Source of the DNA: a virus
Taxonomy: Duplodnaviria > Caudoviricetes
Virus record (IMG/VR): IMGVR_UViG_3300031992_000019
DNA length: 64,000 bases
Strand: one strand, 5' to 3'
In this document: positions 1 to 62,390 of the stretch, piece by piece
Layout of the letters: each line of letters begins with the position of its first letter
How positions within the stretch are numbered: the stretch's first letter is position 1
The notes under the pieces: model-generated
Told to the model about the DNA's origin: nothing
The model's input: the letters and a program-made list of their open reading frames with translations, nothing else
Database searches by the model: none
Program-made: the position numbers and the translations under genes

Positions 1-3000
1 CTTCGAGCTGCTTGCCCGTCATCTTCGTAAGGTCGGAGATGTCCCCGATACCTATCGAGCGGTAGTATTCGGACAGTTCCTTGTTCATCCTCACCCCATA
101 GGAGTGTGACCCCATAGACGCGCCAGCACCAAGTCTTTCCCTCGCGAGTTCTGCTGCGGCTTTCTGCTGCTCCTTGACGAGGTTCATAGCCTCCTTGGAT
201 GCCTTCACCGCCTCATTGCCCCACGATTCGCTCAAATACTCCTTCTTCTTGTCTATGAGGGTGTCCCAGATGGATATCAGCTCTTGATACTCCGCTTTCG
301 CGTCCTCGTAGTCCGAATCGTCCTTGGTGAATCCCAAGAGGTCTGCTGCTGCCGTTGCCAACTGGATGGCTGCGGAGATGATAGCCAAGATAGCGGATGC
401 CTTCTCTATTGTTGATATAGAGTCGGATGCAAGCTGCGAAGCAGTCATCATCGCTCCTCCCACCGAAGATACCATAGTGCCGATACCCTTGATGTATTTG
501 GCGGTCTCTCCTCCGAACTGCTCAAGGTCGCCACCTACCTTGTTCACCGCACCACCCAGTTTCTCAAGGTTTTGCCCCGTCTGGTTGAGGGACTTCTTGA
601 CGCGGTTGCCAGTGTTGGCGACATTATCCTCGGCTTGCGCCTGTCTATTACGTGCATTGGTGAGGTCTTGCGTGGCCTTGAGGACTACGGTTGTCGCTTG
701 CCCCCTCTGCGCCCTCATCAAGTCCTCCTCTGCCGTATATACGTTCTGCGTGGCTTCGGCTAACCTGTTTTGAGCCTCGGCATAGAGTTCGGCATTATCT
801 ATCACCTCTTGGTTGGAGAGGTTCTCTTGTGCGTCTGCCTCTGCCCTACGTGCATCCTCTATCCTCCTACGATATTCCTCAATTTGCTCTTCGGAATAGG
901 TGAATACCCCGTTGTCCTCGCTCTCAAATAGCGAGTTGCGGTTGTTCTCCGCACTCCTTACGCTTTCTTGGCTTCGGACGAGTTCGTCTTGGGCGGCTTT
1001 GTAGTCCTTGAAGTTCCTTATCAGGGATTTCAACGGATTTCTTTTGATGAGTTCGTTCTCGATTCTCCCCATCTCCTGCGCAAAGACCTTGATGTCCTTG
1101 GGGTCGAGGTCTGCCATAGACTCCTTGGCGGCTTCGATGTTCTCCCTCAAGGTTTTAAGGGATTCCGTGGATGCCGCCTCTATGTCGTTGAAGGCTTGGA
1201 AGAATGTCGGGTCGGACTTTATCTGCTCGATAGCCAATGATGCTATCGCCTTCGTCTCCTGCCCACCCAAGGTGAGGAGTTCGCCCCTTAACCTTCTGTT
1301 TAGTTCGAGCGCGGTGTTCTTCTCTATCTCCGAAGAAGTCTGCGAGGCGATGACCTTCTCGTTCTTGGCTATATCCAGTTCTATGTCCCTCTTCTTCGTG
1401 GCATACTCCCTATCAATAGCCTCCCTACGTTTGTAGTATTCGAGATACTTGTTCTCGGACTCACCCTTGTAGGCATTGGCGATGGCTTCCTCCCTCTGAC
1501 GCTCGTAGAGCCGTTTTAACCACTCGTCTTGCGTACTTTCTATCTTGACCCTATAACTCTCCGTTATCTCGGTCAATCGCTGCTCCAGCGAACCGTATTT
1601 GGAAATGTAGTCGTGGAATGCCTTGTCAGCCTCAAACTCGATTTGTATTCTTCGCCCGTCAATGCCCGTGAGAATCCTTTGCAGGTCTTTTAGTTCCTCA
1701 AGGGCATCCCCGTCAATCTCTGGTGTGATGGTGATTATCCTGCCTAATTGTTCGGCGGTGAGTTCCTTGATTTCCTCTTGCCCTCTTTCCTTGAGAATCT
1801 TGTTGGCTTTCTCAACGGCTTTCCGTCTATCGGACTCGTTCTCCGCGAGGTTCTTCCTTCGGTCGGCTTCCTCTTTCGCGTACTTCTTGAGTAGTTCGGC
1901 TGACGAATCATATTTGAGGTTCGAGGACTTTATTTCGGACTGATAGGCTTTCTCGGCTGCGGCTGCAAGTTTCTGGTAGGTCTCCGACTTTTCAAGGATG
2001 GCTTTCTTGGAATTTTCAAACGCGGAATCCTTGGCTTCGGGATTGGCGGCTTTCCACTCGGCTTTCGCGGCTTCCTCGGCGGCTTTTTTCCTGTCCTTCT
2101 TCTGCTGCTCTATCCTCTGGAGTTCCTTCTTGTGGTCGAAGTCCCTTTGGGCGATGATTTTCTCCGAGCCGTCACGCATCGAATCAATCCTCGACTGCGT
2201 TTCCGCGTTGTCTGCCTCGCGCTGCTCCTTCTCGATTTTAAGTCGGTTGTCCTTCAATACCCTTCTTCGGTTCTCTGCCTCTTGCTCCAACTTGTCGGCG
2301 ATGTCACCGCCAGCATCCTTATACGCACCTTGCGCCTCTTGCATCTCCTGCCCCAGAAGGTTGTTGAACTCCTGCGCCTGCACTTGGGAAAGCTGACCAT
2401 TCTGTCCCTCAATCATTTCGAGGATTTTCTTCAGTTTCTCGTTAGACTTGAGGAGTTCCTTTTCCGCGTCATTGAAGACAAAGTTACCTTGGGCGAACTT
2501 CTTCTGGATGGTCTTGATGAGGTTCTCCCTTTTCTTGGCTTCCTTCCGTAATTCTTCGGTGGTACGGGTGTTGTTGAGTTCGGTTTCCGACTTCGTGGCT
2601 TGTTTCTCCGCGTCCTCGGCTTGCTTGCGTGCGTTGTCAACGGTGTTTTGCGCCTTCTCCGCAGCCAACCCCACCCACTTGGCTAATCTTCCGAGGATGG
2701 ATTCTTGGTCTTTGAGCGCAGTTATATCAAGTTCGATGGGCAACTGGACGGGCGAGGTCTTGATTTTCTCTATGTCCGCTTCGTTCAAGGCTTCGAGGAG
2801 TTTCTTCCTCAAAGTGTTCTCATCGAAGTTCACCCATTCGGACACCTCTATGCCCTTTTCTTGCGCTTGGGTGAGAAGGTCATCCGTACTCATCGTATAT
2901 CTGTCCTGCACATCCTTGGCGGCTTTGTAGATTTCAAACCTCTCCTTGGCTGCATCTGCCGCATCCCTCTCCAGCTTGACCCTCTCGCTTAAAGGTTTCT

Positions 3001-5440
3001 TGGCATACTCCTCCTCCTCGCGCATCTTCTCCATGCCCTTGATGGATGCTTCGTTGTTCTTATGGAAGTCCTCCATAAACTTGAGCATCTCGCTCATGGA
3101 CTGCTTGCCCTCTTCGGGGTTGAGGTCTTGGTAGAGGTCGGCAAGTCCTTGCGCGTTTTCCGTGCCTATCTGTTCTAATTCCTCGCGACGTTTCTTCATC
3201 TCATCGCTCATCTTGGCACTCGTTATGATGGTTCTATATTCGTAGGCTTGCTCTTGGGAAAGGAGTTTGCCACCGATATTCTCATAGTCGGTGTATCTTC
3301 CAGCCTCCTCGACCTGCTGCTTCCTATCGTCCTCGTCCTTTCTCCTCCTTACCCTCTGCGCATCCTTCTTGACCTTATCAAGTTGTTCGGGTGTCATCTG
3401 GGCAAGTTGGTAGGCGGTGTACTTCTCCGTCAATTCGGGGAGGATTTCCGAAAGTTTCTTGTATGCCTCATACCTTTCGAGTTCGGTTGAGTTCTCGTTG
3501 CTTATGATGTCAGCAAGGGATTCCTCTTCTTCCCTCCTCTTTTTTAGACCTTCAAGATACCTCTGGTTCTCATCGGCTACCTTTCGCGTGGCTCTCTCCT
3601 GCTCGGTTTCTGCGGTTACTCCGTAGTAGATTATCCCGACAAGCGCGGCAATGGCTGCTGCCATCAATACATAAGGATTGGAAAGCGCGGCTTTGGTGTT
3701 CTCTATCATAGAGGCGGTGAGCATCTTGAATGACCCAGCCAAAGTGAGATTGGAGGTTGTATGCGCCTTCTTTGCTATCGCCGACCTTATGTGACGTTTC
3801 TCCGAATTGCTTGCGGCTACGGCTTCGATGAGTTGTGCTTGTGAGGCATCCTTTGTTGCAACGGCTGCTATCAGTGATGCTTTGGCATCGGCATCCCTCG
3901 CTACCTTGTTGATAAGCATAGCCTTGGTCTGCGCATCCGTGGCCACTTTGTTGATGACCTTTGCCTTGGTGTCGGCATCCGTGGCAAGCGAAAGCGCGAT
4001 TGTAGCCAACCTCAACCCTGTCTGCCCTCCTTGTGCTGCCGTGTTTGTCGCCCTCATCAAAAGAAGTGCGGTTCTATAAGTACCGAAGGTAGCCACGGCA
4101 AACCCCATCCACTTGGCGATATCCTTCCAGTGCTCCACCATAGCACTACGCATCTTGAGGGACTTAATCTTCGCACCCTCAAACATCTGCCCCATCTCGT
4201 TATACATCGAGTGAAGGTTGTCTGCCAACTGACCTTCCTCTGCGGAGATGTTGTTGAGTTGCGCTGCCATGATGCCGTGGAACTGACCGCCCTCTTGTGT
4301 TAGGTGGTCTAACACTTGGTTGAGTTGCTCGAAGGTGATTTTGGTGGACGAGGAGGCAATACCCATCTCGTTCATAATGTCTTTTAGGACGATGCCTTGC
4401 GATGCCCACGACTGCTGCATCTGCCCGTTTACATAACCGATGGACTTCGCCCTGTTATACATGTCCACAAGCTGACCCAACGGCTTGTGTGTGGCGGTGG
4501 CTACCTCGGACAACTGATTAAGTCGGGGAATGATGGTTTCCACGGCTTGACCATAGGCGAGCATCTGCTTCGACCCCTCTACAAGGTCGGAGAACTCGAA
4601 CATATTGTAGTACGCGGCATCCTCCAACTCACCGACAAACTTCTGCGACTTGGACTTGTCCCCAAGAAACACATCCATCGTGCTCTGGATGTCCTGCATC
4701 TCCTCCCTTACCTTGAGGCTCTGGTCATACACACCCTTTAACTTGGAGTATGCTCCTTCCAAACCCATAGTGAAGAGATTGCCCACGGACACGCCCGTAG
4801 CCACACTCACTATGTCATTGAGGATATTCTTTACCTCGTTTCCCCCTTCCTGTAATCTCGCGAAAGCCTCGCCAAGTCCGTCATCTATCCTATCCGCAGC
4901 ATCGGCAGCACCCTCCGTAGCACCCTCCATGATATACTTGTAGATGCCATTCTCCTTGAGGTTGATGGCTCGCTCTGTATTGAGTTCGGAAAGGTCAAAG
5001 GCATATTCCCCCTCCTTTGTCTGCGCGTCTTGGAGTTCGGAATGTGCATCGGCAAGTTTCTTCCTCGCATCAGCCAGCTTCTGCACGTCACCAGTTCGGA
5101 AAGCCTCAAGGGAAGCCGCCTCAAGTTTTTCGATGTCCTTGATGAGCCTGCCTATCGTTGCCCTCTCCCCGTCAAGTGCCGACCTTACGTTGGAAATCTT
5201 CTGGGTGAGTTCCTTGTCCCTTATCGCGAAAGCCTCTTGCATCCTCGCCCCGTCCTTCGCGGCATCGGAAACGAGTTCCGCGAGCTTTCTTCGCGCATCT
5301 GCAAGATTGCCGTTGAGCTTGTCAAAGTTCTTCGTGCCGTAGTCGGCATTGTCGAGTGCCTTTTCCAGACTCTCTATCTCTTTTCTTAACCTCAAAGCCT
5401 CGGTGTAGTCGGCTTCGACATTGAATGCAAGTAATGCCAT
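1..5440 (-). CDS. Tape measure protein of phage A (3' end runs off the window, >1800 aa)
   Basis: ATG at 5440 (MALLAFNVEADY...); reads in the same frame at the window edge (...DLTKMTGKQLE); Ala/Lys/Glu-rich helical sequence following the tail chaperone; absent from the ORF track, consistent with no stop in the window. Confidence 0.88.
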   Translation of the reverse strand, partial: MALLAFNVEADYTEALRLRKEIESLEKALDNADYGTKNFDKLNGNLADARRKLAELVSDAAKDGARMQEAFAIRDKELTQKISNVRSALDGERATIGRLIKDIEKLEAASLEAFRTGDVQKLADARKKLADAHSELQDAQTKEGEYAFDLSELNTERAINLKENGIYKYIMEGATEGAADAADRIDDGLGEAFARLQEGGNEVKNILNDIVSVATGVSVGNLFTMGLEGAYSKLKGVYDQSLKVREEMQDIQSTMDVFLGDKSKSQKFVGELEDAAYYNMFEFSDLVEGSKQMLAYGQAVETIIPRLNQLSEVATATHKPLGQLVDMYNRAKSIGYVNGQMQQSWASQGIVLKDIMNEMGIASSSTKITFEQLNQVLDHLTQEGGQFHGIMAAQLNNISAEEGQLADNLHSMYNEMGQMFEGAKIKSLKMRSAMVEHWKDIAKWMGFAVATFGTYRTALLLMRATNTAAQGGQTGLRLATIALSLATDADTKAKVINKVATDAQTKAMLINKVARDADAKASLIAAVATKDASQAQLIEAVAASNSEKRHIRSAIAKKAHTTSNLTLAGSFKMLTASMIENTKAALSNPYVLMAAAIAALVGIIYYGVTAETEQERATRKVADENQRYLEGLKKRREEEESLADIISNENSTELERYEAYKKLSEILPELTEKYTAYQLAQMTPEQLDKVKKDAQRVRRRKDEDDRKQQVEEAGRYTDYENIGGKLLSQEQAYEYRTIITSAKMSDEMKKRREELEQIGTENAQGLADLYQDLNPEEGKQSMSEMLKFMEDFHKNNEASIKGMEKMREEEEYAKKPLSERVKLERDAADAAKERFEIYKAAKDVQDRYTMSTDDLLTQAQEKGIEVSEWVNFDENTLRKKLLEALNEADIEKIKTSPVQLPIELDITALKDQESILGRLAKWVGLAAEKAQNTVDNARKQAEDAEKQATKSETELNNTRTTEELRKEAKKRENLIKTIQKKFAQGNFVFNDAEKELLKSNEKLKKILEMIEGQNGQLSQVQAQEFNNLLGQEMQEAQGAYKDAGGDIADKLEQEAENRRRVLKDNRLKIEKEQREADNAETQSRIDSMRDGSEKIIAQRDFDHKKELQRIEQQKKDRKKAAEEAAKAEWKAANPEAKDSAFENSKKAILEKSETYQKLAAAAEKAYQSEIKSSNLKYDSSAELLKKYAKEEADRRKNLAENESDRRKAVEKANKILKERGQEEIKELTAEQLGRIITITPEIDGDALEELKDLQRILTGIDGRRIQIEFEADKAFHDYISKYGSLEQRLTEITESYRVKIESTQDEWLKRLYERQREEAIANAYKGESENKYLEYYKRREAIDREYATKKRDIELDIAKNEKVIASQTSSEIEKNTALELNRRLRGELLTLGGQETKAIASLAIEQIKSDPTFFQAFNDIEAASTESLKTLRENIEAAKESMADLDPKDIKVFAQEMGRIENELIKRNPLKSLIRNFKDYKAAQDELVRSQESVRSAENNRNSLFESEDNGVFTYSEEQIEEYRRRIEDARRAEADAQENLSNQEVIDNAELYAEAQNRLAEATQNVYTAEEDLMRAQRGQATTVVLKATQDLTNARNRQAQAEDNVANTGNRVKKSLNQTGQNLEKLGGAVNKVGGDLEQFGGETAKYIKGIGTMVSSVGGAMMTASQLASDSISTIEKASAILAIISAAIQLATAAADLLGFTKDDSDYEDAKAEYQELISIWDTLIDKKKEYLSESWGNEAVKASKEAMNLVKEQQKAAAELARERLGAGASMGSHSYGVRMNKELSEYYRSIGIGDISDLTKMTGKQLE

Positions 5441-5697
5441 TATTTCTGTTTTCGTCTTGCGGCCATTTCACGACCAGTTATCTTTTTAACCTTCGCACCC
5501 ATAACGGTGTGGAGTTTGTCCTTTTGCATAATAAGGAGATTGCGGTAAGGAATCTCATACACCACCTCTCGATAGGAAAGATGCAGCTCCTCCATGAACG
5601 TAGCAATCTGCCCGAGTAAAGTCGCGTTGCCCGCTACTTCGGTCTTGCTATCAGCATCGCCACGTTCTTGGTCAAAGCCGATAGCTTGAAGAAATTT
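5440..5697 (-). CDS. -1 frameshift extension of the tail assembly chaperone (gpGT-like C-terminus)
   Basis: Slippery A-AAT-TTC at 5697-5691; the -1 frame is open (FLQAIGFDQERGDADSKTEVAGNATLLGQIATFMEELHLSY...KQK*) to a TAA overlapping the TMP ATG. Confidence 0.75.
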   Translation of the reverse strand, partial: KFLQAIGFDQERGDADSKTEVAGNATLLGQIATFMEELHLSYREVVYEIPYRNLLIMQKDKLHTVMGAKVKKITGREMAARRKQK

Positions 5698-6017
5698 TCG
5701 GTGGAGATGAGGGAAAGACCCTTCTCTATCCCGTTGACTATCTCGTCAAAAGTACCCTTGGAGAGTTCCTCCGTCAGACTTTCGTCCCCAGTGATTAGGT
5801 AGCTCAATGCCTTGGCACACCCCTCCGCTCCGTATAGGGCGGTCTGCAATATCGTGCTTATGTCACGAGCCTCGCCCAGCTCACCCAAGGAATGACCGAC
5901 ACCAGCCAAGATATGTATCGTGGGCGGTTTTATCACATAGCATTTCCCGTTCACAAAGCACGTTGCGATATCATACCCCAACAGGGCACTTGATACTAAT
6001 TTACTCCCTTTGCTCAT
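5634..6017 (-). CDS. Tail assembly chaperone (gpG-like)
   Basis: Lies between major tail and TMP; likely start MSKGSK at 6017; contains the slippery site. Confidence 0.75.
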   Translation of the reverse strand: MSKGSKLVSSALLGYDIATCFVNGKCYVIKPPTIHILAGVGHSLGELGEARDISTILQTALYGAEGCAKALSYLITGDESLTEELSKGTFDEIVNGIEKGLSLISTENFFKLSALTKNVAMLIARPK

Positions 6018-7332: not shown

Positions 7333-7637
7333 ATCACGGAATAGTTTAGCTTGTTGGTTCGGATGACTCTGTTGACTTTCCCACGTCCCCTCACCTTCTC
7401 ACCGTCATAGGCTATAACCTCATCCCCCGCTTGGATTTCGGTCTTTCCCTCTATGACGATTTTGTAAGTTGAGCGATAGACTGTGCCGTTGTCGCTGATG
7501 AGGTCTTGCGTGGAATCGTCATCACATCGGCATCCTCCCCCGTCAAGCCATTCCCCCTCCGAAGATACGGGTCTTCCGTACTCGTCGCGCGACACTTGGG
7601 GTCGGCGGTAGGTTAGCGTATGAGGTTTGTAGAACAT
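7323..7637 (-). CDS. Putative head closure protein
   Basis: RDEYGRP motif; position. Confidence 0.55.
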   Translation of the reverse strand: MFYKPHTLTYRRPQVSRDEYGRPVSSEGEWLDGGGCRCDDDSTQDLISDNGTVYRSTYKIVIEGKTEIQAGDEVIAYDGEKVRGRGKVNRVIRTNKLNYSVIWV

Positions 7638-10922: not shown

Positions 10923-10932
10923 CGCAAAGATA
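10923..10932 (-). promoter_or_regulatory. Bacteroidota -7 promoter box upstream of the phage A head operon
   Basis: TATCTTTGCG on the - strand, ~40 bp upstream of the scaffold ATG. Confidence 0.55.
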
Positions 10933-11035
10933 TACCTTAATATCCTATTATTTGCATTTTAACGCGCCTTTCACGGCACTAAAAATTATTGTGCATAAAT
11001 CACACGTTTTAGGGGCAGAAAGTCCAGTAGAACGC

Positions 11036-11069
11036 AAAAAAAGAAGGCGCGTCTCACGACGAACCTTCT
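11036..11069 (-). terminator. Rho-independent terminator
   Basis: GAAGG-TTCGTC-GTGA-GACGCG-CCTTC followed by T7 on the - strand. Confidence 0.7.
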
Positions 11070-11285
11070 CAAAATATTTCTCTCTTAATACTAATGGTCG
11101 GACTCTACGAACCTCACGGCGGGTAGAGGGTCTTTTGCATTGACTTACTTGTCTGCAACGCAAAATGAAATGTAATCAACTCAAAATTCTTAAACCAATT
11201 AAATCCCGAAACACTACGAACCATCGCGGCGGGTAGTGCTGGTGTGCGCATTGACTTACTTGTGTGCAAAACGCACGGTTGTTAT
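11036..11285 (-). ncRNA. Candidate ~250-nt ncRNA containing two copies of a two-hairpin motif
   Basis: Copies at 11103-11165 and 11211-11276 share TGCA-nAC-AAGTAA-GTC-AA-TGC and CTAC-CCGCC-GYGA-(T)GGTTC-GTAG with compensatory stem changes; flanked by a promoter box and a terminator. Confidence 0.6.
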
Positions 11286-11291
11286 TGCCTA

Positions 11292-11301
11292 TGCAAAGAT
11301 A
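11292..11301 (-). promoter_or_regulatory. -7 promoter box for the candidate ncRNA
   Basis: TATCTTTGCA immediately upstream of the motif, with no convincing CDS before the terminator. Confidence 0.6.
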
Positions 11302-11386
11302 CTAATTCTCAAGCAAGTCACAACAACACGCACGGATGAAAAGCACTTTTGAAATCACTCTAATAACGTATGAAGATGAGATTTGT

Positions 11387-11935
11387 TTATAACCATACTA
11401 ACTTTTTTCGGACGTATGCCATCCATCGAAAGTTAGAGTAGTAGCAGCCATTGTAGTTCTCGAAGTTGCCGAACATTCTCACATTGCCCGTAGGTACGTG
11501 AAGAAAGGCGAACTTTGAACCGCCGATGATTGTCTGGACGGCTTCGGCTAATGCCTTTGACCCGAACCCGTATCGCTTGATGTAGGGCACGAAAACGGTC
11601 TTGAAGACATATTCGCTATCGGTAATATCGTTCTTCGGGTAGTAGGGCAGACACCCGTTGTGGGCGAAGAACACACCGCCGTCAGCCCCCGAAAAGAAGG
11701 GGTGGCAGTTGTCGAGGTTGACCGAGCCTTGGGTGGCAAACCTAAAATGGATGATGCAAGCCTCATTCTCTGGCACTTTGCCGAGCTGCTCTACGAACTC
11801 GCTAAACTTGAGGGTCTTGAATGAACGGCTCTTTGTGGCGAACCCCATGCCGTCTGGATTGGCTTGGTGACACGCGCGAAGGGTGGTTAACGAGGGCATC
11901 TTTGCGCCCGCTGGCTTTACGATGAGAATGCACAT
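11387..11935 (-). CDS. Class II (Ntn) glutamine amidotransferase
   Basis: N-terminal Met-Cys, NPDGMG, HFRFATQG, NCHPF, AHNG and TDSE motifs. Confidence 0.9.
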   Translation of the reverse strand: MCILIVKPAGAKMPSLTTLRACHQANPDGMGFATKSRSFKTLKFSEFVEQLGKVPENEACIIHFRFATQGSVNLDNCHPFFSGADGGVFFAHNGCLPYYPKNDITDSEYVFKTVFVPYIKRYGFGSKALAEAVQTIIGGSKFAFLHVPTGNVRMFGNFENYNGCYYSNFRWMAYVRKKLVWL

Positions 11936-12047: not shown

Positions 12048-12965
12048 TCACATATTCTCGATGCGGGTCTTGAAGTACCGCTTTTCGGCGGCGGTCAAGA
12101 AGGGGACATCGTTGATGTCGGTCACGTAGTGGTCGAGCACGTGGGTCTTCGACCAGCCTACGAGGGCGGCGCAGAACTTTACCCAATGTGAAATCTTGGC
12201 AAAGTTGGTAGTGCCGTGGTGCTGGCGAAACTCTACCGTGTGGTGAGATGACCAGCTCATCGGATTGAGCTTGTGGTAGCGGTCGTTACCCATGACGCGC
12301 TGAACATCTTCGGGGGTGGTACAGCGAGAGAAGTTGTAGTTGCGGATGGTGTGGCAGTAGGTGTTGGTGTCACCGCGACGCGAGGGTGCCATCCAAGTGT
12401 CGATAAGACCCTCGAGCTTCTGGTAGTTCTCAAAGCAGTTGCAGAACTGGTCATCGGTGAAGTCGGCGCAAGAGATATGTACGTGCAAACCGCAAGACTT
12501 GTTCACTTGTGCGCCAGTGGCATTCAATACACCACAAGCCTTCTCAAGTCGGCTCAAACCGCCTTCGCTCGAAAGTACGGGCGATACCATCTCGATAGGA
12601 TTGTTGCCGTAGGTGGTGTTGCGGTCAGGGCGAAGGCTGCTATCGGTCTTGAAGTCGAAGGTAGCATTGCCGTTGGTGTGGGCGTAGTAGCCGAGCCAGT
12701 TGTAAGACACGCCCGTTTCGGTGAGTCCGCGCTCAACTGAGCTACGATTGCAGAGGCACTCAATCTCAACACCAAAGGTGTAGGCGAAAGGTGCGATACG
12801 TGTGCGGATGGTCTGCGTGAGAACATCTACATATTGCTTTTTGATGTTCTCTATGTCCCAGCCAGTCAAGCCGAGAGCCTTCAGCTCGCGAACCTTGGTG
12901 TTGAGGGACTTGGTTGAGGTCATTACGTCGTTGATGGTCTGGTTGAGGGTCTTCATACGATTCAA
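12048..12965 (-). CDS. Putative amidoligase (COOH-NH2 ligase, glutamine synthetase-like fold)
   Basis: FGVEIE, DSSL, EMVSPVL, CGLHVH, RYHKLN and TVEFRQ motifs. Confidence 0.9.
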   Translation of the reverse strand: MNRMKTLNQTINDVMTSTKSLNTKVRELKALGLTGWDIENIKKQYVDVLTQTIRTRIAPFAYTFGVEIECLCNRSSVERGLTETGVSYNWLGYYAHTNGNATFDFKTDSSLRPDRNTTYGNNPIEMVSPVLSSEGGLSRLEKACGVLNATGAQVNKSCGLHVHISCADFTDDQFCNCFENYQKLEGLIDTWMAPSRRGDTNTYCHTIRNYNFSRCTTPEDVQRVMGNDRYHKLNPMSWSSHHTVEFRQHHGTTNFAKISHWVKFCAALVGWSKTHVLDHYVTDINDVPFLTAAEKRYFKTRIENM

Positions 12966-13027
12966 AAGTATTAAGAGGTGAATCGGGGTCGTTGCCCGTG
13001 CGGTCTTGGGTTTGTCCCTTTCGACAC

Positions 13028-13061
13028 CGCAAAGATAGGGGATTGTATTGGATTATCCAAA
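13028..13061 (-). promoter_or_regulatory. Bacteroidota sigma-A promoter for the amidoligase operon
   Basis: TTTG-N20-TATCTTTG. Confidence 0.7.
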
Positions 13062-13929: not shown

Positions 13930-14195
13930 GGGTTGGAGGTGAACCGCCCGCTTGTGCCAGTGATTCTATCGGCTTCTCGCATCTCCTGCACCTTGGCATC
14001 CTCCCTCATCCTCTGGCGTTCCTTGCGCGATGGTTTGACCGTCTTCTCCTCGGCATAGACGCTGCATTCGGGGACATCGGTGCGGTTGTGCTTGCCCAGT
14101 CCGCAATATCCGTCCATCGGAGCGACGTGCTTGGGCACTTTCTTGGTGAAGGGGTGGAAATGAATACAATTTCCGCAGCATTTTTTAGTTTCCAT
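13908..14195 (-). CDS. Small Cys-rich hypothetical protein
   Basis: CCGNCIHF...GYC...C pattern common in phage early genes. Confidence 0.55.
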   Translation of the reverse strand: METKKCCGNCIHFHPFTKKVPKHVAPMDGYCGLGKHNRTDVPECSVYAEEKTVKPSRKERQRMREDAKVQEMREADRITGTSGRFTSNPWKDYIK

Positions 14196-15414
14196 CTTTT
14201 TTCAGTTTTGAGTTAAGTAATTCTTCCATCACGCCTATCCAGAAATAGGCGACATTGTTCAAGTCCATTCGTATTTGCGTCTTGCCCTCTATGGTGAGGT
14301 TGGTTTCCGCGCAGCTCCTTACCGTGTCCACGGAAATCATATTCTCGTCGGCGGCATCCTTGAGGGAAGGCCATATACCCTTGAAGGTGGCGCGTCCTCC
14401 GTTCATCTTGAGTCCGAAGACGAACTCCCCGTCAGGGTATATCTTGTAGAGGTCATTGAGGAACACCCTCGCGCTATGGTAGTCCATCTTGAGCATCGAC
14501 GTGGTGAAGGAGAACTGCTCATAGCACTCCATCGACCCGAAGTAGTATGGTGCGGAGAACATCTCGGAGAACCTCGGACTCTTGCCCTCGTCACCAGCCG
14601 CGATAATTAAATCTATGTTTTCATAGCGGAAGAGTGCCTTGATGCAGTCGAAGGCGGTCTTGTCCACATTGTAGGAGGTGAAGACACCCTTCACATCAAC
14701 AAGAAGTTGCTCGGCTACCTTGATGCCCTTGTACATCCTTCGCGTCTTGATTTTCTCCCAGAGTTCCCTCTCCTCTTTCGTGTAGAGGAATCGTATCGTC
14801 TTGCCGTTGACGTTCTTCAACTCAAGGGCATTGGCGAGAGATAGGATTTGTGTGTGTACCTTGAGGGAGCGGAAGGTGTCTATCTCTGCCAAGTCCTTGA
14901 ACGTGGAGCGGTAGTTGACGAACAACTGCGAGAAGAACATCAGTTTGAGGACATAAAGGCATAACGGTTTGTCCACTGGTGCGCACACCTTGAGGAGTTC
15001 CTTCTCTATGGCTTTACCGATGTTCTCCAGATGGGGGTCGATAATCTCCAAGGCTTTCTCCGTGGACAGACTCATACCCTCATACGCATCAGTATTGCCC
15101 ACGAAGTTCATCCTGTTGTTGAGTGAGTACATGAAGTCCGCGAGCTTGTCATAATACTTGTAGGAATTAGTGTATATGGTTTCGCAGAGCCTCAATACCT
15201 TCTCGTCAGTATATTCTTTCTTCGTGTGGAGCTTGTTCTTCACATTGCCCCTATCGAGGATTGCCCGTGAAAGTCCTATACACTTGTCGGTGACAATGGA
15301 GGCCATCGTGGTCATCGAATAGACTGGGATAGCTTCCAGTGCCCTCAATCTTGCAAGGAGTTCCGCGTTCTTGCTCGTATGTGTGGGTGGGGTGCGCGTC
15401 AAAGTGCCTGCCAT
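14185..15414 (-). CDS. Hypothetical protein with a possible C-terminal NUMOD1-like HTH
   Basis: 409-aa ORF; GIWPSLKDAADENMISVDTVRSC near the C-terminus. Confidence 0.6.
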   Translation of the reverse strand: MAGTLTRTPPTHTSKNAELLARLRALEAIPVYSMTTMASIVTDKCIGLSRAILDRGNVKNKLHTKKEYTDEKVLRLCETIYTNSYKYYDKLADFMYSLNNRMNFVGNTDAYEGMSLSTEKALEIIDPHLENIGKAIEKELLKVCAPVDKPLCLYVLKLMFFSQLFVNYRSTFKDLAEIDTFRSLKVHTQILSLANALELKNVNGKTIRFLYTKEERELWEKIKTRRMYKGIKVAEQLLVDVKGVFTSYNVDKTAFDCIKALFRYENIDLIIAAGDEGKSPRFSEMFSAPYYFGSMECYEQFSFTTSMLKMDYHSARVFLNDLYKIYPDGEFVFGLKMNGGRATFKGIWPSLKDAADENMISVDTVRSCAETNLTIEGKTQIRMDLNNVAYFWIGVMEELLNSKLKKDGN

Positions 15415-30702: not shown

Positions 30703-31854
30703 TCAGGATGGGAGGATGGGAGTGGGAGCAGATGAAGGGTCAACCATGAGTTCCTGCTGGAGTTCCTTGATCTGAGCGGCTGTGATGCCGACGACCTCGG
30801 TGAGGAACCGGTAGCACTGGGTGTAGTAGTCGGAGCCGAACTTCTTCTCGATGGCCTTGTCGAACTGACGGAAGTCGTCTTCACCTCCGATATCGTCCCA
30901 CATCTTGGTATTTAACCAATACAAGAGGGACGTGAGCTCGTAGTATCCCTGGGCGATGCGCTTGGGGACACCACAGATGCCCTGCAGGATGTAGCAGAAT
31001 GTCCCGGTGCGGTCGGCTCCTGCGTAGCAATTAAACGCGACACGGTGGCCTGCCTTGAGTTCGGTGATGAGCTTTGTGATTGCGGTTTTCCATCCGGTGG
31101 GCTTGGTGAGGCATGACGTGTAGTCGTTGATGGTGCAGTCGATTCCGGCAGGGAACAGGTCGGGACGCCATGGCTTCTCGGTGTTGGAAGATGTGCTCGG
31201 CTTGCGGAGGTTGAGTTGATAGTCGATGCCAAGGGACTGGATGAGTTTGTAGTCATTACTTCCAACCTCCACGTAATCCGGGTTGGCTCCTCGGAATACG
31301 CGGTCCATCTTCATAATTGGGCCGTAGGCGATATCCCTCACGTTTGGCCACGTAGGGATATTGATGAGCCTGATGAAGCCTATGGTCTTGAAGTCGCCCT
31401 CCTTGATGATGGTGGTTCCATTCATGACGGTCCAGTGGTACACCTTGCCGGGCAGCAGCTGGTAGCACGCATAGACGTTATTTTCGGGGAGGATGGTCTG
31501 AGACGGGAGGCCTTCGGACTCGAGCAGCAGGGAGTCGCCGCCGCTGCAGAACACGAGGAAGGGGTTGGACCGGTCTGCCATGTTCTTCTTGCTGGACTCG
31601 CTGACGTACTTGGTGAAGTACCACATACGGGAGACGTCGGAGTACTTATACCCGAGCGTTGGGAGCAGCTTGAAGTAGTAATCGACGATGGGGTTGACGA
31701 TGTTGTGGATGGGGATCTCGTCGGAGACGAACTGCTCCCACCCGGCCGAAGCCTCGGCAGCGGCGGATTTGACCGCCGTGCCGATAGTCCGGTCGATGAG
31801 CTTGCGGACGCCCGAGAAGATGGCGCCCAGAGAAGAGAGAGTCAGGAGCTTCAT
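30703..31854 (-). CDS. Protein with a Cys-based tyrosine/dual-specificity phosphatase domain
   Basis: NVRDI, VFRG, NLR and CX5R P-loop NCYAGADRTG. Confidence 0.8.
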   Translation of the reverse strand: MKLLTLSSLGAIFSGVRKLIDRTIGTAVKSAAAEASAGWEQFVSDEIPIHNIVNPIVDYYFKLLPTLGYKYSDVSRMWYFTKYVSESSKKNMADRSNPFLVFCSGGDSLLLESEGLPSQTILPENNVYACYQLLPGKVYHWTVMNGTTIIKEGDFKTIGFIRLINIPTWPNVRDIAYGPIMKMDRVFRGANPDYVEVGSNDYKLIQSLGIDYQLNLRKPSTSSNTEKPWRPDLFPAGIDCTINDYTSCLTKPTGWKTAITKLITELKAGHRVAFNCYAGADRTGTFCYILQGICGVPKRIAQGYYELTSLLYWLNTKMWDDIGGEDDFRQFDKAIEKKFGSDYYTQCYRFLTEVVGITAAQIKELQQELMVDPSSAPTPILPS

Positions 31855-62340: not shown

Positions 62341-62390
62341 TGCAAAGATACGAAATTTTGTGCAACAAAACAAATTTTTGTGCAACAAAA
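62341..62390 (-). promoter_or_regulatory. Promoter overlapped by two palindromic operator-like repeats
   Basis: TTTG-N20-TATCTTTGCA; TTTTGTGCAACAAAA at 62356 and 62376. Confidence 0.65.

Follow-up and report, generated by a model that had tools for sequence, protein, structure and literature searches.

Sequence evidence for a non-coding RNA locus in a large Bacteroidota phage and for a widespread hairpin class that it carries

We analysed a 64,000-nt stretch of DNA (hereafter the window), the IMG/VR virus record IMGVR_UViG_3300031992_000019 (Duplodnaviria; Caudoviricetes). On its minus strand, genes for an amidoligase (12048-12965) and a class-II glutamine amidotransferase (GATase, 11387-11935) precede a region that is followed by genes for a 291-amino-acid protein, a 181-amino-acid protein and the major capsid protein. 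From the sequence alone, this region (11301 to 11036) had been predicted to encode a self-contained non-coding RNA, in which two copies of a two-hairpin motif with covarying stems lie between a promoter and a terminator. The repeats, folding scores, covariation and lineage-specific insertions and deletions (indels) described below bear out this original prediction as to the RNA unit, its strand and its covarying stems, and sequence comparison confirms that this is a genuine locus of non-coding RNA in a large Bacteroidota phage. Two tandem units, A and B, each consist of a hairpin H1 and a hairpin H2 (Table 1), and we infer that they are transcribed as an RNA of roughly 250 nt.

The units are defined by two conserved blocks. 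The first, ACAAGTAAGTCAATGC, occurs on the minus strand at 11263-11248 and 11152-11137 and nowhere else in the window (0.26 occurrences expected allowing three mismatches). The second, CTACCCGCCGYGA(N)GGTTCGTAG, is likewise restricted to 11236-11214 and 11126-11105 of that strand, with none expected. Around these blocks the outer stems differ between units A and B and pairing is kept, both in H1 (GUGCGU/GCGCAC versus UUUUGC/GCAAAA) and in H2 (AGCACUAC/GUAGUGUU versus CUCUAC/GUAGAG). The 5' and 3' ends of a unit do not pair with each other. On the minus strand both units folded better than shuffled sequences (z -2.45 and -3.43), whereas the plus-strand folds were no better than shuffles (z +0.26 and -0.94). 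Furthermore, an invariant G.U pair in H2 is compatible with the minus strand only.

Close relatives were defined as contigs (labelled L) that encode GATase proteins more than 90% identical. They comprise the lineage of the window and L040, the lineage L041-L050, L052, and the more distant L051. The small open reading frames of the region are disrupted between these lineages by a 5-nt indel (in L041), a deletion of about 27 nt that removes most of the spacer between the units (in L051), and a 1-nt loop indel. Because such indels break the frames, the region is not coding; a small-protein reading is thus excluded, and homologues do not conserve a reading frame, which would have spoken against an RNA. 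The terminator predicted at the end of the region is a stable GC-rich hairpin with a U-tract (11069-11036), as in intrinsic terminators. The hairpin and its U7 are conserved in L041, L051 and L052, and in L051 AAGG/CCUU is changed to AUGG/CCAU, a compensatory A-U to U-A exchange.

Table 1. Features of the RNA locus and of the adjoining promoters and leader; positions are those of the window.
Feature	Position	Strand	Details
-7 box TATCTTTG, Bacteroidota-type promoter	11301-11294	-	TTG about 19 nt upstream, at 11323-11321
57-nt promoter-carrying block	11270-11326	-	alignment of lineages
Unit A	11276-11210	-	H1 and H2
Hairpin H1 of unit A	11244-11276	-	stem GUGCGU/GCGCAC, conserved top UUG-C-AC-ACAAGUAA-GU-CAA; fold and covariation with unit B and L051
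Hairpin H2 of unit A	11210-11240	-	AGCACUAC-CC-GCC-GCGAU-GGU-UC-GUAGUGUU, then UUC; model R1 40.7 bits, E 2e-10
Spacer between units, AU-rich, 44 nt	11166-11209	-	unconserved
Unit B	11165-11103	-	H1 and H2
Hairpin H1 of unit B	11133-11165	-	stem UUUUGC/GCAAAA, top as in unit A; fold
Hairpin H2 of unit B	11103-11128	-	CUCUAC-CC-GCC-GUGA-GGU-UC-GUAGAG, no U-tail; model R1 41.0 bits, E 1.6e-10
11-mer AGUAUUAAGAG, largely unpaired, candidate antisense seed	11082-11092	-	between unit B and terminator
Intrinsic terminator, GUGA-loop hairpin 11069-11042, then U7	11036-11069	-	-17.4 kcal/mol, z -2.15
CUCUUAAUACU, candidate 11-mer target in the amidoligase-GATase leader	12967-12977	-	10 nt before the conserved ATG at 12956
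-7 box, promoter of the amidoligase-GATase operon	13030-13037	-	upstream source of predicted read-through transcripts across the RNA region
Separate head-gene promoter	10925-10994	-	GCAC-N11-GTGC box 10994-10976, -7 box TATCTTTG 10932-10925

No Rfam family accounts for these units, as had been predicted. The Rfam 15 covariance models gave no match at gathering score in the window, and at E values up to 10 the units were overlapped by chance-level matches only; ARAGORN called no tRNA or tmRNA gene. Elsewhere in the window, at 31122-31165 (+), a glutamine-II riboswitch model matched below threshold (20 bits versus a gathering score of 33, E 1.5), which is of interest only since the phage encodes a glutamine amidotransferase.

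H1 is best described as a 10-bp stem, made of six covarying pairs and a conserved GUUG/CAAU, followed by a bulge, an AC/GU pair and an 8-nt loop. The inner pairing nAC/GUC proposed earlier is broken in L041 and L051. Across copies and lineages the lower stem reads GUGCGU/GCGCAC, UUUUGC/GCAAAA, UCUGC/GCAGA or GGUGCG/CGCACC. The UCUGC/GCAGA stem, in unit B of L051, shows a compensatory U-A to C-G change; in unit A of the same contig the loop has diverged and the stem is retained. The 20-nt top of H1 is identical in both units of the window. Scans of viral contigs with the exact 16-mer and 20-mer of this top returned chance matches only, devoid of stems and of H2, and by these searches H1 is lineage-specific, seen in the lineage of this phage only.

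H2 behaves differently. Although both hairpins repeat within the locus, as the original prediction had it, the two do not form one motif elsewhere: H2 is a well-supported, independent and uncatalogued class of hairpins, which sequence searches place in many gut and rumen phages and integrative elements associated with Bacteroidota. It consists of a variable stem of 5-11 bp, a closing C-G pair, an internal loop of 5'-CC and 3'-UC, a helix of three pairs (G.U, C-G, C-G) and a GNRA loop. The closing C-G pair, the CC/UC loop, the G.U pair and the GNRA loop are invariant or nearly so; the loop is GUGA, GCGA, GGGA or GUAA, at times with one extra base.

The first scan of viral contigs used the 16-nt core CCCGCCGYGAGGTTCG and was therefore unbiased as to the flanks. 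It returned 118 stretches, in which the pairing of the flanks was bimodal: 1-2 bp, the chance level, in GC-rich coding DNA, versus 5-10 bp at about 40 AT-rich intergenic sites, and these sites carry many different stem sequences. A covariance model, R1, was built next and found variants of the core. Both H2 copies of the window fit the H2 definition at about 41 bits, within a class range of 30-49 bits. Among 52 distinct copies from viral contigs, 87% of the cells were paired as against 65% in shuffles, and the covariation score was 0.59, compared with 0.15 for shuffles and 0.06-0.13 when the partners were slid. Four of the stem positions were paired by the selection rule, so that independent evidence is strongest in the bimodal pairing of the flanks, in pairs five and six of the stem, and in the inner helix. 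In the latter, C-G was replaced by U-A four times, and G.U by U-A, A-U or G-C. The covariance-model search of gut and rumen phage sequences that had been proposed to check the motif thus recovered, for H2, many covarying copies. Twelve other H2-bearing loci compared with Rfam gave nothing at gathering score except tRNAs, and a literature search for the core sequence found nothing.

A scan of metagenomes for the core followed by a U-run returned 96 stretches, with about 70 further H2 copies and 39 distinct stems, mostly from recurring JGI samples, which we take from their sample ids to be rumen, and from human-gut assemblies. H2 copies with CUAC/GUAG stems gave no match in the JGI metagenomes, nor did the whole RNA by blastn against GenBank phages. 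Five viral records estimated as 87-100% complete contain 1-3 H2 copies each, mostly in tandem at one locus, and by R1 the window contains its two copies and no others. Such low numbers in near-complete records argue that H2 is not a generic terminator of these genomes. Nor is it, on the searches made, an element of the hosts: the same scan of one genome per bacterial or archaeal species gave 12 matches, none with the H2 fold, and R1 gave only two weak matches (27 bits) in 151 Bacteroidota genomes.

Two groups of look-alikes were set aside. In Verrucomicrobia genomes, Akkermansia included (L183, L186, L187, L188, L190), a plain terminator of another fold, CCCCGCCGCGAGGUUCGCGGACGGGG-UUUU, stands after the same conserved gene and has 16 letters in common with H2. 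An exact 22-nt copy of the H2 core in L053 (13552-13585, minus strand) is probably fortuitous, about 0.1 such copies being expected by our estimate. L053 is a GC-rich lambda-like phage, and the copy lies in its cos region upstream of the small terminase gene, where the CUAC/GUAG flanks form a stem of 4 bp only and overlap a stronger alternative hairpin of 11 bp.

The genomic surroundings of H2 resemble those of a terminator. A U-rich tail follows 22 of the 36 copies found without bias. Most copies elsewhere combine, as intrinsic terminators do, a stable GC-rich hairpin with a U-tract; those of the window do so in part, unit A being followed by UUUC and unit B by no U-tail. Most copies stand after small early genes. 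In the largest group, a gene for an Xis-like protein of 94 amino acids is followed by H2 and then by tRNA, DUF3127, AAA_25 and primase genes, and a Bacteroidota-type integrase gene adjoins. H2 of L066 is 32 nt away from the HTH_17 gene upstream of it and 38 nt from recT downstream, which leaves no room for a promoter, and at several loci the downstream genes are reachable by read-through only. In the distant GATase lineage L062/L063, H2 has the form GCGCCCGC-CCGCCGUGAGGUUC-GCGGGUGC-UUUU directly after the GATase gene, and in L062 it ends the GATase operon and faces a convergent gene. A canonical TAnnTTTG box was present upstream of 12 of 85 copies only, mostly in one lineage, and no conserved boxA-like flank was seen beside H2. 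The largest protein families at H2 loci, the integrase and the Xis-like protein, cover about half of the loci and have no homologue in the window.

Several other features of the H2 loci were recorded. In IMG/VR record G005, three paralogous genes for 148-amino-acid proteins, 16-24 kb apart, are each followed by a near-identical H2 (L292, L293, L129); these copies close with U-A instead of C-G, and the record resembles repeated related elements. Segments with tRNA-like ends (for example GGAAGGATGGCCGAGTGGTCGAAGGC ... GGGTCCGAATCCC) occur 15-55 nt after H2 in L098 (11060-11200, plus strand), L073 (about 7480-7540, minus strand), L138 (about 2700-2800, minus strand) and L065/L113/L173. They were called by neither ARAGORN nor Rfam and may represent tRNAs interrupted by introns or long insertions. 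In L082, L103, L128, L161, L180, L218 and L261, the 100-200 nt that follow H2 contain a segment conserved between contigs (…GGGGAGAAAGGC…), which is rich in purines, apparently structured and without a match in Rfam. In L121, a tandem H2 pair has a reverse transcriptase gene (4577-5842, plus strand) about 1.5 kb upstream and an integrase gene just downstream, possibly the neighbourhood of a diversity-generating retroelement.

The promoter of the RNA, predicted from its box TATCTTTG, is of the same kind as others of the window. The box matches the Bacteroidota -7 box and recurs in promoters at 62350, 40309, 30497, 27440 and 13037, which are of the Bacteroidota type TTG-N19-21-TAnnTTTG. Alignment of the lineages located it in the 57-nt block of Table 1, which is present in the window and L040 and missing from L041-L050 and L052; by this comparison the RNA's own promoter is a recent gain, restricted to the present lineage. 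The RNA is accordingly self-contained, as proposed, in the lineage of the window, but not in L041 and L052. There the promoter block is absent, and the RNA is therefore a structured 3' untranslated region (3' UTR) of the amidoligase-GATase operon. The gain of a promoter directly before H1 speaks for selection on the RNA as a product in itself. A direct repeat, CCGTGCGT, flanks the block at 11335-11328 and 11278-11271 and makes its exact boundaries ambiguous; the CCGTGCGT duplication is of the target-site kind.

The same block also gave the best Rfam match of the whole window. At 11281-11324 (minus strand) it weakly resembled CRISPR-DR49, scoring 30.6 bits where the gathering score is 41 (E 0.5 window-wide and 0.006 on 801 nt), and no other promoter of this class in the window gave such a match. 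CRISPR-DR49 is a 47-nt Bacteroidota type II-C repeat with an internal promoter of the same kind as that of the block; the block could be a captured solitary repeat serving as a portable promoter. A degenerate search for a DR49-like repeat found no counterpart in a sample of 401 Bacteroidota genomes. As phage-borne tandem hairpin units behind such a promoter, the RNA recalls Racr and solitary CRISPR repeats, to which the original prediction had compared it as an anti-defence mimic. However, neither hairpin is hit by any CRISPR repeat model, the searches of bacterial genomes gave no true H2, and the DR49-like part is below threshold and lies mostly upstream of the predicted transcription start. 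With no repeat to imitate in the genomes searched, the comparison found no support.

The association with the amidoligase and the GATase, which the original prediction had also raised, proved to be local. Among 38 loci that surround GATase homologues, H2 was found in the lineage of the window and in L062/L063 only, that is, in 2 of about 12 GATase lineages, and the syntenic relatives L060 and L193 are devoid of the RNA. A general partnership of the RNA with these enzymes was thereby ruled out. What stands is that the RNA is the 3' UTR of the operon in the sister lineages, and that an 11-mer in its 3' part is complementary to the leader of the same operon. Between unit B and the terminator lies AGUAUUAAGAG (11092-11082), whose complement, CUCUUAAUACU, is found without a mismatch at 12977-12967. 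Both 11-mers are present a single time in each of the lineages window/L040, L041, L051 and L052, and in L051 the 11-mer of the RNA forms a conserved island between diverged flanks. Only 4 of 1000 shuffles of the RNA attained an 11-nt perfect complementarity to the leader. The target lies in a predicted hairpin loop with a mean probability of being unpaired of 0.92. The seed is more open (0.60) than the whole RNA (0.41), and the local duplex was estimated at -15.1 kcal/mol.

An independent case was sought in L062, whose GATase is 52% identical, by a test fixed beforehand. This locus has a 10-nt pair of its own, UUCUAAGGGU 4 nt before H2 and ACCCUUAGAA in the leader, attained in 5 of 500 shuffles; for the twin locus L063 the figure is 11 of 500 (p about 0.01-0.02). 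Within the four lineages no compensatory change was seen in the antisense pair. Searches for other antisense targets inside the window gave nothing longer than 12 nt, and the 12-nt matches were promoter boxes. RNAduplex on the full-length RNAs was uninformative, 97 of 300 shuffles being equally good. Taken together, pairing between the 11-mer and the leader is plausible from these sequences.

The setting of the locus is that of a large phage. The longest recorded contig of the GATase protein cluster measures 165,745 nt, and the nearest relatives of the capsid protein belong to Bacteroidota phages of Cellulophaga, Riemerella and Porphyromonas and to human-gut contigs. The closest of them, MT835576, does not carry the RNA. 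The 291-amino-acid protein has no Pfam or PADLOC hit, corresponds only to phrog_5824 of unknown function, and is syntenic with the 181-amino-acid protein and the major capsid protein in L041, L051, L052 and L060. The head-gene promoter is kept in L041, L051 and L052, and its GCAC-N11-GTGC box lies 43 nt upstream of the -7 box. Upstream of the amidoligase, L051 (1-232, plus strand) encodes a 412-amino-acid protein with RRXRR and HNH domains where the window (14185-15414, minus strand) has a reading frame of 409 amino acids devoid of a Pfam hit, apparently the result of gene replacement among close relatives. L040, a contig of 1932 nt that comes from a JGI sample, has the same sequence as the window. 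Its first letter lies some 25 nt downstream of the operon's predicted transcription start and its last one 3 nt beyond the 11-mer, which leaves about 12 nt to the terminator stem; the contig may thus derive from an RNA transcript.

The explanation that we tentatively prefer, somewhat short of an even chance, is that the locus encodes a regulatory small RNA or 3'-UTR RNA with terminator-type hairpins recognised by a protein. The RNA would be made from its own promoter in this lineage and as the 3' UTR of the early amidoligase-GATase operon in the sister lineages, and would comprise two tandem modules in which the lineage-specific H1 is joined to a copy of H2. Elsewhere H2 would serve to terminate or attenuate transcription and present its invariant top to a specific protein, a function suggested by the usual U-tail, the site after small early genes and the 1-3 copies per genome. 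In the window, the two H2 copies and the real terminator would bring early transcription to an end just ahead of the head genes with their separate promoter, and would probably stabilise the RNA as well. The unpaired 11-mer would pair with the leader of the amidoligase-GATase operon itself, in the loop that lies 10 nt ahead of the start codon, and so tune or shut off translation of the amidoligase. Such an arrangement resembles FinP/traJ, hok/sok and 3'-UTR small RNAs, which are likewise multi-hairpin RNAs with a terminator end and an unpaired stretch complementary to a loop of an mRNA leader near the start codon. The sister-lineage form, being the 3' end of the mRNA that it could pair with, further recalls the 5'-3' fold-back of hok mRNA. 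Unlike FinP and Sok, the RNA of the window is not encoded antisense to its target, the predicted pairing is 11 nt only, and no chaperone is known.

Several observations weigh against this explanation. The 11-mer was put to the test post hoc, over the whole window an 11-nt match is no more than chance would give (BLAST E 3.6), and at the other H2 loci complementarity between leader and 3' region was not in excess (2 of 50 at p<0.05 versus 2.5 expected). The L062 target lies at -42 to -33 and not at the start codon. As described above, H2 occurs in few GATase lineages and the RNA is missing from two syntenic relatives. No H2-binding protein was identified, and no protein family is common to all H2 loci. 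Finally, the H2 copies of the window do not have a proper U-tail and may not terminate alone.

Part of these observations would be expected if the locus were purely a 3' end and insulator, in which H2 and the terminator stop and stabilise early transcripts, no function is exerted in trans, and the 11-mer match is fortuitous. The position of the RNA between the early operon and the separately promoted head module fits such an insulator, as do the H2 copies elsewhere, which mostly have a U-tail and end operons, and the chance level of the 11-nt match together with the lack of a general leader/3'-region complementarity. Like the intrinsic terminators of the lambda tR1 type, H2 is GC-rich, mostly U-tailed, and follows the first small early gene or closes an operon. 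These terminators, however, conserve no sequence, whereas H2 keeps an invariant 16-nt top over some 40-50 stems, a constancy that a generic terminator does not need, any more than a limit of 1-3 copies per genome. The window keeps this top exactly in two copies that have no good U-tail. The dedicated promoter gained before the RNA, the identical 20-nt top of H1 in both units, the conserved island of the 11-mer in L051 and the analogous pair in L062 also fit poorly. We therefore regard a mere insulator as doubtful, although it deserves serious consideration.

More specific, and improbable in our estimate, is the idea that H2 is the recognition site of a sequence-specific termination or antitermination regulator common to many Bacteroidota phages and elements, an analogue of nut/boxB and N, and that the RNA of the window, driven by its own promoter and carrying two H2 tops uncoupled from U-tails, would be a sponge for this regulator which also pairs with its own early leader. 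The boxB hairpins of lambda and P22 are small, have a GNRA-type loop and a specific top, and occur in very few copies just after the first early gene, all of which holds for H2. In contrast to H2, boxB is accompanied by boxA and has neither a U-tail nor a CC/UC internal loop; the two have no sequence likeness, and no N-like protein was identified at H2 loci.

A protein decoy, as the original prediction had proposed, in which tandem H2 (and H1) would titrate an RNA-binding protein, either the H2 regulator of resident elements and rival phages or a host defence protein, has a slightly smaller chance still. It would account for an independently promoted RNA on which each conserved top is present twice in exact form, and for an H2 freed here from the U-tail, so that the top must matter beyond termination; H2 is moreover present in many integrase-bearing elements of the same habitat. 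Against it, no binding protein was identified, the bacterial genomes searched gave neither a host RNA nor a CRISPR repeat resembling H1 or H2, no toxin or defence gene lies nearby, and the promoter is absent in the sister lineages. The earlier comparison with ToxI belongs here, since the type III antitoxin RNAs (ToxI, CptI, TenpI) too have a promoter, tandem RNA repeats, a terminator and then a reading frame. It failed on several counts. Type III antitoxins are head-to-tail repeats of about 34-45 nt that have no spacer, whereas the units of the window measure about 65 nt with a period of about 110 nt and an unconserved 44-nt spacer. In addition, no adjacent downstream toxin gene of the ToxN, AbiQ, CptN or TenpN kind and no PADLOC hit were found, and the downstream reading frame encodes the 291-amino-acid head-module protein, in order with the capsid gene.

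It is very unlikely that the RNA is a cis-acting antitermination signal of the lambda nut or HK022 put type, which would let the polymerase read through the terminator into the head genes. The order of promoter, structured RNA, terminator and late genes is that of lambda and HK022, the put RNAs of HK022 are likewise two-hairpin units of about 65-70 nt, and in other elements H2 occupies a position like that of nutR and tR1, after the first early gene. However, the head genes have their own conserved promoter and GCAC-N11-GTGC box downstream of the terminator, L060 and L193 have the same head module devoid of the RNA, and H2 elsewhere is itself followed by a U-tail. Hardly credible, finally, is a feature acting as DNA (cruciforms or protein sites, with 11-bp inverted repeats flanking a mobile amidoligase-GATase cassette): the 11-mer and its complement do bracket the two genes and the units, and the promoter block has its target-site-kind duplication, but the invariant G.U pair and the G.U pairs of many stems work only in the RNA of one strand, and the GNRA loop, the U-tails and the better-than-shuffled folds are all confined to the minus strand.

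What is new here is the H2 motif, which is uncatalogued; in kind, regulated terminators and small-RNA hairpins are already known. To our knowledge, gene regulation in the phages and mobile elements of Bacteroidota is almost unexplored; we know of no Hfq or ProQ in these hosts, and of no phage antiterminator or RNA chaperone for them. A hairpin of 30 nt with an invariant top would be a cheap handle for pull-downs or reporters aimed at finding the protein that reads it. The RNA of the window, in which the H2 top is present without the U-tail, would offer a natural separation of the role of the top from termination. For the phage itself, the complementarity between the leader and the 3' end suggests a feedback loop that may act on the amidoligase-GATase pair.

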